From: Escherichia coli
GTDB lineage: Bacteria; Pseudomonadota; Gammaproteobacteria; Enterobacterales; Enterobacteriaceae
Reading direction: 5' to 3' (one strand)
Length of the DNA: 64,000 bases
NCBI RefSeq assembly: GCF_051903065.1
Contig: NZ_CP178438.1
This document shows, piece after piece, positions 25,305 to 29,739 of the stretch (positions are counted from its first letter, which is position 1; every line of letters starts with the position of its first letter). A model generated the notes under the pieces. That model saw only the letters and a program-made list of their open reading frames with translations. It was not told the DNA's origin and searched no databases. Position numbers and translations under genes: made by a program.

Positions 25305-25349
25305 AGCGGCTATATCCCCCCCACAGGTTGTTAGAAAAGTGCGCTTTAT

Positions 25350-25460
25350 TTATGTCGGATGCGACGCTGGCGCGTCTTATCCGACCTACAAAGTTATGAA
25401 AATTCGATGAATAGTATGTTATTTGTAGGCCTGACAGGCGTAGCGCATCAGGCGATTTTG
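25350..25460. repeat. Pair of REP elements downstream of arsC
   Basis: tgtcggatgcgacgctggcgcgtcttatccgacctac and tgtaggcctgacaggcgtagcgcatcaggc. Confidence 0.5.
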
Positions 25461-25930
25461 CTATTTACACATTACTCCCTGCGTGAGATTCCAATTATCG
25501 CGTCCAGCATGGTGTATCAGTGAGCTGCTTAGTTATCCGCGATACAGTGCAGCAGTTTAAAGACGTACTGGATTATGATTTATCAGTGCTTTACACAACA
25601 AATTATTCAATAATTATAAGATACCTTAACCCATTTTATTATTACACATCTAAAACATCACAAAAATATCATTTCACACACTATCGGAGAACATCATAAC
25701 TTTTTAAAATGAGCGCTTTTTGATAGTTGTTAACGTTTTCTTTTACGATACTATCAATGCCCTTTTTTATACACAAATATTACCGGGTGGAGATAAAAGG
25801 GAAGTCAAAGGTAATTATATCAGGAAGATATGACGCATGATATTTATTGTGCGTAGAAGAAAATCCATTCCTGCTTTAATTATCCAATTTAAAAATCTTA
25901 GCATAAAACAGATAATGAATAAGGAATGTT

Positions 25931-27154
25931 ATGTCAATTGACTTTACCCCAGGTATGATAAATACATATCACGGCGATATTTATAACCGCACAACAGATA
26001 CCGACAATGTTAAAACACCAGACACACCGATGTGGCCTTGTGATAATCGGGAAGAACAACAACCCATTAATTCCACATTCTCTGGAGAAGGATACAACCC
26101 TGAACAATATGATTTAGCGCGGCAACACCTCCCACAAATTTATGCGTGCCGCACGAACACCAAATATACAGATGCAGACTACTCAAAAGTTGTGGCTCAA
26201 CTTGTAAGTCTTATTACTAACATTGAATCGATAAGTTCGACACCACTTACGCGGCAGGCACAGGAAATACTTAATCAAATTAATAACATTAGATACGAAA
26301 AGAACAAAAGTGCTGAATGTCGAATCATTGTTGTCGCTAATCCTAAACCCGACAAGGCAATCATAACTAAAATTAGCGTAGAAGAGGGAATACCAGTAAG
26401 ATTCAGTGTCCAAACCATGTTTTCAGATACTAATTTTATTGCTGAACAACGAGCTGACTTACCGACTAATATAAAAGATATTCAAAGCCTGTATCAAAAA
26501 ATGACGAAGTTATATATTGAGCACAGTGAAAATAAAAACAGGATGAAAGTCTTTGCCGGAACCAACTTTATTGATTTCAATATGACAGGACAGAACCTGT
26601 CCGGGTTCGTTCTAACCTTGTCAAGGTTTTATTTCGAAGATCTACTTAATATAAATTTCACTGACGCAAATTTAGGTGACACTATTTTTTCACATAAAGA
26701 ACACCCTACCCCAAAATTATATAAAGACGAACAATATCTTGACAAACAAATCGAAGGTTTATTTTCAACATTATTAACCATTAATGACAACTTTTTACGA
26801 GCAAAAGCGGAAATTGCTTCGACAATAATTAAATTTTTAGAGGCCAGGATAACCAATCTTTCATACAACGACATATTAAAATATCAGCAAGAATTCCAAA
26901 AACAATGTTATAAGCAAGTTAAAGCCTTTACGACACTCTCCCGATACAATAAAATTCAAACATGGGCAGAAATGTCTGAATATCAATTCGAAGTATTTCA
27001 ATACGAGACGCTTAACCCAAAAAAAATGTCACGCACGCCTTATTTAAAGAGGCCACTTCCTGATGAAAAAGATATAAATTATGGGGTGGAAATAGAAATA
27101 CCGTCTGGTAAAAGAATTCGCTTATCAAATCATTATCAGAATATAATACCATAA
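25931..27154 (+). CDS. yhiS: Uncharacterised protein YhiS, intact; AT-rich with a pentapeptide-repeat-like middle segment
   Basis: 407-aa uninterrupted ORF; segment [46 protein letters not shown]. Confidence 0.65.
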
Positions 27155-27400
27155 TATTGATTATTAGCACTTTATAATCATTGAATAAAAATAGATTTTA
27201 TGTAATTTTAAAACAAAGGGTTATATTATGGGGCGATGGATACTCATGCCACGCCCCAAAATAACGGAATTGAACTAAACAGAAGGGATATAAACATCAG
27301 ACAGGTTTACGTTACTATCAGGCATATCGCCTCAGAATCAGATGAAAACTATAAAGAAATATCTATTATGGTTTTAATATTTGTTGATAAGGATAGTAAC

Positions 27401-27967
27401 ATGAACATGACAAAAGGTGCACTCATACTCAGCCTTTCATTTTTGCTTGCCGCATGTAGTTCAATTCCGCAAAATATCAAAGGCAATAACCAACCTGATA
27501 TTCAAAAAAGTTTTGTTGCTGTTCATAACCAGCCGGGGTTATATGTTGGTCAACAAGCGCGCTTTGGTGGGAAGGTTATCAACGTTATCAATGGCAAAAC
27601 GGATACGTTGTTAGAAATCGCTGTATTACCGTTGGATAGCTATGCGAAGCCTGATATTGAAGCCAACTATCAGGGCCGACTGCTCGCCAGACAAAGCGGC
27701 TTCCTTGACCCAGTGAACTATCGTAATCACTTTGTTACCATCCTCGGTACCATTCAGGGTGAACAACCAGGCTTTATCAATAAAGTCCCGTATAACTTCC
27801 TGGAAGTGAATATGCAGGGCATCCAGGTGTGGCATTTGAGAGAAGTGGTTAATACCACCTATAACCTGTGGGATTACGGCTATGGTGCATTCTGGCCGGA
27901 ACCGGGCTGGGGTGCGCCTTACTACACCAATGCGGTGAGTCAGGTAACACCTGAGCTGGTCAAATAA
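27401..27967 (+). CDS. slp: Starvation-inducible outer membrane lipoprotein Slp
   Basis: Start MNMTKGALILSLSFLLAACSS with lipobox LAAC; 188 aa; AAGGA RBS before ATG 27401. Confidence 0.85.
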   Translation: MNMTKGALILSLSFLLAACSSIPQNIKGNNQPDIQKSFVAVHNQPGLYVGQQARFGGKVINVINGKTDTLLEIAVLPLDSYAKPDIEANYQGRLLARQSGFLDPVNYRNHFVTILGTIQGEQPGFINKVPYNFLEVNMQGIQVWHLREVVNTTYNLWDYGYGAFWPEPGWGAPYYTNAVSQVTPELVK

Positions 27968-28710: not shown

Positions 28711-29739
28711 TTATGCAGCAACGCCTTCCGGTATCAGCGAAGCAATTTGCTTACGCCATTGCGCTTGCTCCTGTTCGCCTTCTGTACGTTGACCATAAAG
28801 TTGCGCTATCTGCGTACCATCATGGGCAAACAATTCCAGACTGGTTACGTAGCCATCGCTGGTCGGTTTACGGGTAACCCAGGCTTCAGCAATGCTCTCT
28901 TCTAATAGATGAAGAGTAAACGTCGGGTTGAAAATATTCAGCCAACCTTTCATTGGCACCACTTTTTCTACCACACCGGTGAAAATCTGTACGCAGCCAC
29001 GGTTGCCAACAAACACCATGATTTCATTACCATCCTGCTGTGCAGATTCAAGAATTTGCGCCAACGCACTGTTGGATACTTTGCAGGCCAAATCGTCCGC
29101 CACCAGATTGAACGCCTGTTGGCGCGTCAGGTTGTGGCGCTTGAGCAACGTAAAAAACTGATGAACGTCGGTCATCGCCCGCCACTCTTGCTCGACCACA
29201 GTGGCATCGGCTCGCGTTTGAACAACTGGCGCATCAACGGCTTTTAACTCAAGCGGCGTATTCTCATCGGTGATAAACCGTGCCAGAAGCTCACTCCATG
29301 CCGCCATATCGGTATTGTCGGTGGCATAAACTTTTAGTAATGCATCGCCCTGATGATCAAAGAACTGAATACTTTGGCGTTCGCCACGAGCCGTGTTTTC
29401 TTTGATGTGGAAAACACTGGCCCATTGATTGAGAAACAGACGTAAATCCAGCGCGCGTGGATTGAGGATCAATCCGGCATGTCCGTTCAAATGCTGGTTT
29501 GTGAACGTACCAACTTGCTCATGGACTGCATATTCATTACGGCAAATACATTTGGTCTCGCCAACACTTTCGAGCGCCGCCAGAATTTCACGGATATCGC
29601 CGCGCATCCGCCACGCATCGTGCGTGACGCGTGCAAATGCCAGTTCTGCTTCTCTAATATTCATTAACCCTGCGATGTCACGCGCGTACTTTCCGGGTCT
29701 TTGTTCTTTTAACTCAAGCCAGCGTGTGTAGTGGTTCAT
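28711..29739 (-). CDS. chuS: Haem-degrading/haem oxygenase-like protein ChuS
   Basis: 342-aa ORF next to chuA with a ChuS/HemS-like two-domain layout. Confidence 0.85.
   Translation of the reverse strand: MNHYTRWLELKEQRPGKYARDIAGLMNIREAELAFARVTHDAWRMRGDIREILAALESVGETKCICRNEYAVHEQVGTFTNQHLNGHAGLILNPRALDLRLFLNQWASVFHIKENTARGERQSIQFFDHQGDALLKVYATDNTDMAAWSELLARFITDENTPLELKAVDAPVVQTRADATVVEQEWRAMTDVHQFFTLLKRHNLTRQQAFNLVADDLACKVSNSALAQILESAQQDGNEIMVFVGNRGCVQIFTGVVEKVVPMKGWLNIFNPTFTLHLLEESIAEAWVTRKPTSDGYVTSLELFAHDGTQIAQLYGQRTEGEQEQAQWRKQIASLIPEGVAA

Follow-up and report, generated by a model that had tools for sequence, protein, structure and literature searches.

The question raised by this locus is what kind of protein yhiS encodes in those Escherichia coli strains in which the gene is whole. 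A stretch of 64,000 nucleotides of E. coli DNA (NCBI RefSeq assembly GCF_051903065.1, contig NZ_CP178438.1), referred to here as the window, carries yhiS at the left edge of the acid fitness island, flanked by arsC and slp. Open reading frame (ORF) and synteny place the intact gene at 25931..27154 on the plus strand (407 codons, coordinates including the stop; ATG start), within the order gorA, dinQ, arsRBC, yhiS, slp, dctR, chuS, chuA taken from the annotation of an E. coli chromosome that is 100% identical. Genes annotated as "hypothetical protein" at the arsC-slp position of other E. coli genomes are 93-100% identical to it, and the orthologue group is held together by position (arsC, or a variable ars locus, on one side and slp-dctR on the other) and by full-length amino acid identity of at least 62%. 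The window gene is thus an allele of yhiS, which is b3504 in K-12 and, by position, Z4907 in O157:H7 EDL933, where it has been mentioned as an unknown gene at the border of that island (PMC9729726). The K-12 gene (UniProt P37635; pseudogene yhiS_1/yhiS_2) is the same gene at the same arsC-yhiS-slp locus, and has been described as a pseudogene, interrupted by an insertion element (PMC8170033). A literature search gave no functional study of intact yhiS.

An earlier note on this DNA, made from the sequence alone, had read yhiS as one uninterrupted ORF of 407 amino acids and described the K-12 gene as split by IS5. Both statements proved correct. The window protein aligned end to end with the 407-amino acid product of A/B1-type strains (WP_000020604), and the match to K-12-type genomes stopped at ORF nt 746, with an IS5 transposase annotated in the gap, whereas the window keeps the whole frame. 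At the nucleotide level the window gene was 93-99% identical to A/B1- and O157-type alleles. A 100%-identical copy in another chromosome (NZ_AP045789.1 4113919-4115035, equivalent to 25931-27047 of the window) is nevertheless labelled "frameshifted" by the Prokaryotic Genome Annotation Pipeline (PGAP). Because the coordinates of this pseudogene end at the stop of the 371-amino acid O157-type product, the label apparently reflects a comparison with the truncated O157 form as reference; the window allele is the full-length state of yhiS. With a full-length allele marked as a pseudogene in this way, intact alleles of the window class are probably missing from protein databases.

Ten consecutive pentapeptides were found at residues 206-255 (26546..26695, plus strand, as are all features of the protein given below); each has F, L or M as its central residue, which in six follows N or D. 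The central residues, from 208 and 213 through to 253, form a run of 10 at period 5; the longest run at any other period from 2 to 8 was at most 6. A period-5 run of at least 10 arose in 8 of 20,000 shuffles of the whole protein (p ~4e-4) and in 18 of 20,000 shuffles preserving local composition (p ~9e-4), and the run was kept in all 16 alleles examined, including one only 62% identical. The earlier note had pointed to degenerate pentapeptide repeats at about residues 205-250, and the pentads it listed, NLGDT among them, were present within this slightly longer run. Residues 206-255 also show what is expected of tandem repeats in pentapeptide-repeat proteins, namely A(D/N)LXX-like units with L or F at the centre in at least about eight copies. 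They carry a net charge of -2, and would form roughly 2.5 coils of a putative right-handed quadrilateral beta-helix. The repeats are followed by a non-repeat linker (residues 256-278; 26696..26764), and residues 193-205 (26507..26545) bear, by inspection, a weak likeness to the "LYST.SY..K.L" linker that precedes modules of tandem pentapeptide-repeat proteins.

Relatives of this segment were sought in an exhaustive HMMER (phmmer) search of 1.84 billion protein cluster representatives. Forty of its 43 matches were YhiS or YhiS fragments, with identities of 62% or more apart from one artefact at 43%, and only one of the forty entries was full length. The remaining three (P0032, P0039 and P0043; E 1.2e-5, 1.4e-4 and 5.2e-4) were proteins of 803-1075 residues with PF00805 scores of 156-263 bits. 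Each was matched through five to seven stretches, all falling on YhiS residues 204-283, and the alignments covered the non-repeat linker as well, YhiS being set against "QLYST.SY.DKDL.GI" of the repeat-protein modules. When a profile of YhiS alleles (residues 195-289) was compared by hhalign with a profile of twelve such modules, which had been picked because they already matched YhiS, the probability was 97% and E was 1.2e-10, over 73 columns that included the linker and contained one three-residue gap. In a sequence search of the Protein Data Bank (PDB) the best match was the Rfr pentapeptide protein 2f3l, with E 0.087 from the single sequence and 0.006 from the allele profile; the profile also matched TL15 and QnrB1, all on residues 203-255. 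The only Pfam match of the window protein was to PF00805 (Pentapeptide, clan CL0505; 11.6 bits, E 0.22), which also came up most often with the alleles (in 15 of 16, with a best E of 0.037, none passing). Pentapeptide-repeat proteins were the only non-family matches in every search, and the phmmer, hhalign and Rfr (E 0.006) results together give a statistically supported relationship to bona fide members of that group. The pentapeptide profile comparison that the earlier note had called for therefore came out positive in hhalign and in the library search (E 1e-5 to 5e-4), although sub-threshold in Pfam.

From these alignments we conclude that YhiS contains a single copy of a module, about 75 residues long, consisting of ten pentapeptides and an "LY..Y.DK...G" linker, which occurs in tandem in environmental pentapeptide-repeat proteins. 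The tandem-module proteins (800-1075 amino acids; PF00805, PF13599, PF13576) have 5-10 modules of about 70 residues, to which YhiS is 22-31% identical in a multiple alignment and up to 35% by pairwise BLAST, and their ends gave weaker matches, at or under the Pfam threshold, to PEP-CTERM or dockerin. YhiS differs from them in having a single module, neither signal peptide nor sorting signal, and about 330 further residues without relatives. The Rfr-type proteins with solved structures that gave the best PDB sequence matches (Rfr32, 2f3l/2g0y; Np275/276, 2j8k; TL15, 3n90) are beta-helices over the whole protein, of 5-9 coils, in contrast to the ~2.5 coils of YhiS, whose segment is also more degenerate at the i-2 position and lies under the Pfam threshold. 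One apparent distant homologue, P0041 (93 amino acids, 43% identity), was rejected, as its contig is rich in indels and 95% identical in nucleotide sequence to the window; its source is a low-quality E. coli assembly. An indel-rich E. coli assembly (GCA_002230845.1, NLPL01000001.1) has all of its ars-yhiS-slp-dctR genes broken into short ORFs, and is the origin of protein fragments in public collections that look "divergent" but are spurious.

Structure prediction, also proposed in the earlier note, gave a divided answer. AlphaFold2 was run on full-length YhiS with the 16 alleles and on residues 180-310 with an alignment of nine alleles and sixteen repeat-protein modules. The full-length run (mean predicted local distance difference test score, pLDDT, 41.5) showed no beta-helix, and Foldseek searches with that model returned only noise, with a template modelling score of at most 0.14. 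In the second run the repeat segment reached pLDDT 63-68, with beta bridges every five residues and longer strands at intervals of twenty, a pattern characteristic of a four-sided beta-helix. Foldseek then returned almost only pentapeptide-repeat structures, with local superpositions of 44-46 residues at 0.8-1.0 A (2g0y, 2j8k, 4yei). A pentapeptide profile match is thus at hand and, with repeat-protein modules in the alignment, a beta-helix prediction; the earlier note had named the joint absence of the two as grounds for abandoning the repeat assignment.

The remainder of the protein (47.3 kDa, pI 6.15) is less readily described. The first 78 residues (25931..26164) form a polar N-terminal part, 55% S/T/N/Q/P/G/D with a net charge of -5 and pLDDT 22-41. 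Residues 79-200 (26165..26530; pLDDT ~50-72) are the only part of the full-length model at moderate confidence, and are drawn as a pair of helices, then a small beta sheet and a third helix. The C-terminal part, residues 279-407 (26765..27151), is predicted at low confidence to be helical, as far as residue 365, and then to end in a short hairpin. No relatives of residues 1-78, 79-200 or 279-365 were detectable in the 1.84-billion-protein library or in the PDB. No hydrophobic segment was found (maximum Kyte-Doolittle value 0.99), and hence no evident signal peptide or membrane span, and YhiS is predicted to be a soluble protein of several parts.

Comparison of alleles showed that yhiS is truly protein-coding and under purifying selection, which is strongest over the centre of the protein. 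The ratio of nonsynonymous to synonymous divergence (dN/dS) between the window allele and alleles of 93%, 76% and 62% protein identity was 0.37, 0.41 and 0.35 (Fisher p for dN/dS below 1: 1e-3, 3e-7 and 7e-13), and ranged from 0.25 to 0.42 across all allele pairs. The frame was open at 407-410 codons between alleles with a dS of 0.6, and indels were in frame. Constraint was uneven: dN/dS was 0.1-0.25 over residues 150-325, repeat module included, and 0.7-1.5, near-neutral between alleles, over residues 26-100 and 326-375, while the last 28 residues were well conserved.

At least part of yhiS was found in 5,416 of 5,426 complete E. coli genomes, and at least 80% of it in 3,997. An evenly spaced sample of 40 rows from the ranking of the 5,416 genomes gave a rough estimate of its condition, in which 17 copies were of intact length (1224 bp), 12 had a frameshift length, seven retained nt 1-379 only, three carried IS5 and one carried IS1. 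Five kinds of lesion were seen in all. The K-12 type has IS5 at nt 746, and chu-positive, B2-like strains have a deletion leaving nt 1-379 together with an earlier frameshift. O157-type strains have A7 in place of the A8 tract of the window (27019..27026), and their 371-amino acid product departs from the 407-amino acid window protein at residue 366. The common A/B1 allele has a slippage-prone T7 tract (ORF nt 755-761), which in the window is T6 (26685..26690), interrupted as T6C. One T had been lost at this tract in all seven sampled genomes with a copy length other than 1224 bp; the first stop then fell at codon 282 in five of them and was moved by further changes in the other two. A single IS1 insertion makes up the fifth kind. 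Some of the homopolymer differences could be sequencing errors. The gene has been inactivated independently many times, in at least four different ways. No more than about 15 bases separate the IS5 point from the T-tract frameshift site, both of which fall in the last pentapeptide (window 26670-26690).

In the sequences covered, yhiS appears to be confined to E. coli and Shigella, phylogenetic distribution being one of the checks that the earlier note had proposed. Source names of the YhiS matches in the 1.84-billion library were all E. coli or Shigella, tblastn against plasmids and phages gave three mislabelled chromosomes with no true plasmid copy and no phage match, and a scan of one genome per GTDB species with two exact peptide patterns, which is suggestive only, gave only a contaminant contig. 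This contig, of 409 bp and 0.77x coverage, belongs to an assembly of Ensifer sp. MPMI2T (L008; NZ_SRXN01000179.1) and was rejected as a true copy: it encodes the last 93 residues of YhiS, is 97% identical to E. coli, and almost certainly got into the Ensifer assembly as contamination from E. coli. By cluster size, about 13,000 deposited YhiS protein records are full length.

The alleles themselves are deeply diverged and mosaic, down to 62% amino acid identity, with protein clusters at about 97-100, 93, 88, 81, 76 and 62% identity to the window and many mosaics between them. Between two of the strains compared, L002 and L005, dS was 0 in slp and 0.009 in dctR, and 0.278 in yhiS with a dN of 0.117. 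Across the window, L002, L005 and L007 (27079-28650) slp had a dS of 0-0.05 and no amino acid change, against a yhiS dS of 0.28-0.6. The block diverging from the window ended abruptly near 27079 in L005 and near 27279 in L007, and identity 3' of these points was mostly 97-100%. An initial statement that yhiS dS is 10-30 times the local background was dropped, as in gorA the window differs from two other strains by a dS of ~0.2, which makes the excess dependent on the pair chosen. Since gorA is so diverged, deep divergence is not unique to yhiS in this region, yet the contrast with slp-dctR is striking. The switch at the 3' end of yhiS suggests that one slp-dctR haplotype has spread recently, or that recombination has its boundary here. 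The ars locus on the other side is variable too, one strain having an ArsR-family gene and a permease in place of arsRBC, with the breakpoint near window 25615. Many genomes matched the window only from about 25614-25617 onward, so the 5' spacer of yhiS (25305-25617) is a junction of variable content.

The earlier note had called yhiS markedly AT-rich and proposed a comparison with its neighbours; the ORF has a GC content of 35.4% (31.6% at third codon positions), against 53.9% for arsB, 51.4% for arsC and 48.8% for the whole window, so the description is apt. The low GC content suggests horizontal acquisition. The intergenic region between arsC and yhiS (25305..25930) is similarly AT-rich (35.9% GC) and holds several weak promoter-like sites. 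A consensus promoter scan gave 15 promoter-like sites where 9.2 were expected, the strongest being antisense and inside yhiS; the two best sigma-70-like matches (26716-26745 and 26468-26497, minus strand) agreed at 11 of 12 and 10 of 12 positions. Such antisense matches would fit the "promoter island" behaviour of H-NS-bound AT-rich DNA, and the K-12 arsC/yhiS spacer has been listed among H-NS-bound promoter islands (PMC3661553), while yhiS has been named among strong StpA and H-NS sites (bioRxiv 10.64898/2026.02.10.705075). No terminator-like site was found between 25250 and 27450. A Shine-Dalgarno-like AAGGA, read from the sequence, lies at 25921-25925, five bases 5' of the yhiS ATG. Just after arsC are elements of the repetitive extragenic palindromic (REP) type, at 25343-25386 from sequence and Rfam, with a second copy discerned by eye near 25427-25454; Rfam gave only a sub-threshold REP-like naRNA4 match in the 5' spacer (31 bits against 59.5) and none in yhiS. 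The REP piece also matches elsewhere in other genomes, which may explain the multiple matches per genome of the 2-kb query.

Several features of the surrounding DNA were also recorded. The haem-uptake genes chuS and chuA (28711-29739 and beyond, minus strand) come straight after dctR, which places the window in a chu-positive lineage; in the chu-negative strains L002, L004 and L005 yhiD stands in that position instead. The closest relatives at this locus were two isolates, one from human faeces in Ecuador and one from a deer, and the O157-type yhiS was 99.2% identical. The slp ORF as read mechanically (27236-27967) has 243 codons, while the annotated start is at 27401 (188 amino acids, lipoprotein); the 55-codon 5' extension is probably not translated.

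Considered as a whole, it is likely that the window holds an intact allele of an uncharacterised gene confined to E. coli, whose product has one pentapeptide module and may be a docking protein that is normally silenced and only conditionally useful. The anatomical and evolutionary parts of this description are held with high confidence. The part concerning function, namely protein docking and conditional usefulness, is a tentative suggestion that we would ourselves rate as rather doubtful. It supposes that the short rigid beta-helix would most likely offer a docking or scaffold surface for another protein, that the fast-evolving N- and C-terminal parts might set partner specificity, and that yhiS would normally be silenced by H-NS and be useful only under certain conditions, which would explain its frequent losses. 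A docking role is favoured because the helix is too short to imitate DNA and because in multi-domain proteins such as NleL and SopA the pentapeptide fold provides a rigid surface for interactions; in NleL the beta-helix domain is built of pentapeptide repeats (PMC3013003).

A number of observations weigh against this account. PF00805 fell below its gathering threshold of 20.2 bits in all 16 alleles, an NCBIfam scan of YhiS gave no match, and the modules used in hhalign were chosen for their existing likeness to YhiS. The repeat segment had a pLDDT below 50 in the full-length model, where it was drawn as a helix and was uninformative, and the Foldseek E-values for the 180-310 model were weak (0.07-0.2). 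A beta-helix was predicted only when rows of repeat proteins stood in the alignment, which is partly circular, and because of this the second model indicates compatibility with the fold and is not proof of it. In K-12, where yhiS is already broken, its deletion or overexpression left the minimum inhibitory concentration of chlorhexidine unchanged (PMC8170033), and overexpression of YdeO left the yhiS transcript level unchanged (PMC4222967). The frequent inactivation would fit a gene that has become dispensable just as well.

This last point leads to the view that yhiS is a decaying relic, its frame open in the window only because it has not yet been struck and its protein no longer functional. 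Only 17 of 40 sampled copies were of intact length, at least four independent kinds of lesion were found, and the region is H-NS-silenced in K-12 with no phenotype reported (PMC8170033), but a relic would not be expected to keep dN/dS well under 1 in all allele pairs (p 1e-3 to 7e-13) and at 0.1-0.25 in the centre, to keep an AT-rich frame of 407 codons open across alleles at a dS of 0.6 with indels in frame, or to leave about 13,000 full-length protein records, and we regard this view as unlikely. Equally unlikely in our estimation is that yhiS has been kept polymorphic by long-term balancing or diversifying selection, with fast-evolving ends displayed by a conserved beta-helix core to a partner that itself keeps changing, for instance a molecule of a host, phage or competitor; allele classes whose age well exceeds that of the slp-dctR haplotype would then persist and recombine, and lineages without the partner would lose the gene. 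On another view YhiS might be, or have been, a secreted effector in the manner of NleL (EspX7), SopA, PipB and PipB2, with an unstructured N-terminal signal and a host-docking beta-helix. Its low GC content, its want of a Sec signal or membrane segment, its polar, unfolded N-terminal 78 residues and its fast-evolving ends, which fit an antagonistic interaction, are all in keeping with this, and NleL and SopA, which have an N-terminal pentapeptide beta-helix as one domain of a larger enterobacterial protein from AT-rich DNA, an arrangement resembling the one proposed for YhiS, were among the structural neighbours of the beta-helix model. These structural matches are generic to the fold and poor, however (root-mean-square deviation 8-12 A). 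YhiS has no HECT-like domain and no detected sequence relationship to NleL and SopA, and no similarity to any effector was found in the PDB or the 1.84-billion-protein library. Moreover, yhiS is spread through E. coli as a whole, whether the genome comes from a commensal, environmental or clinical source, and its neighbours are ars and slp, without chaperone or secretion genes, so that an effector role is distinctly improbable.

The nature of the repeat segment itself could be read in two other ways. The pentapeptide pattern might be a chance product of an AT-rich sequence rich in N, I, F and L, the segment having some other fold. The sub-threshold Pfam scores, the weak Foldseek E-values and the lack of a beta-helix in the unbiased AlphaFold2 run are what this would predict; the shuffling results (p ~4e-4, or 9e-4 with local composition), the library-wide E-values of down to 1e-5 to three independent repeat proteins with the non-repeat linker aligned too, the hhalign probability of 97% and the retention of the pattern in alleles only 62% identical make it very improbable. 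Alternatively, as the earlier note had hinted in mentioning DNA mimics, YhiS might protect a topoisomerase by imitating DNA, as do Qnr, MfpA, AlbG and McbG. Proteins of this kind share the repeat type, and QnrB1, MfpA and AlbG were among the weak sequence or fold matches to residues 206-255, but these matches are generic to the repeat. The known mimics have a continuous helix of ~180-220 residues (~8-10 coils) with DNA-like size and a negative surface, whereas the ten pentapeptides of YhiS cover 50 residues, carry a net charge of only -2 and are surrounded by about 350 unrelated residues in a different architecture. Because there are only ~2.5 coils, a Qnr-like mimic is extremely unlikely, and the hint was not supported. 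No YhiS match to PADLOC anti-phage models or PHROGs phage families was found at E up to 1.

Returning to the docking protein proposed above, the wider meaning of the finding can be kept modest. The current understanding of pentapeptide-repeat proteins and of the acid fitness island is unchanged by it. That yhiS is an uncharacterised gene, and that pentapeptide repeats of this kind exist, was already known; what merits a note, if no more, is the unannotated module and the deep mosaic polymorphism. A practical annotation problem is also flagged, in that a full-length yhiS allele is labelled "frameshifted" in RefSeq. K-12 being the reference strain, the pseudogene state of its yhiS has left the gene largely unstudied, and the existence of intact alleles under purifying selection, with a recognisable module and deep mosaic diversity beside a near-invariant slp-dctR, offers starting points for experiments.

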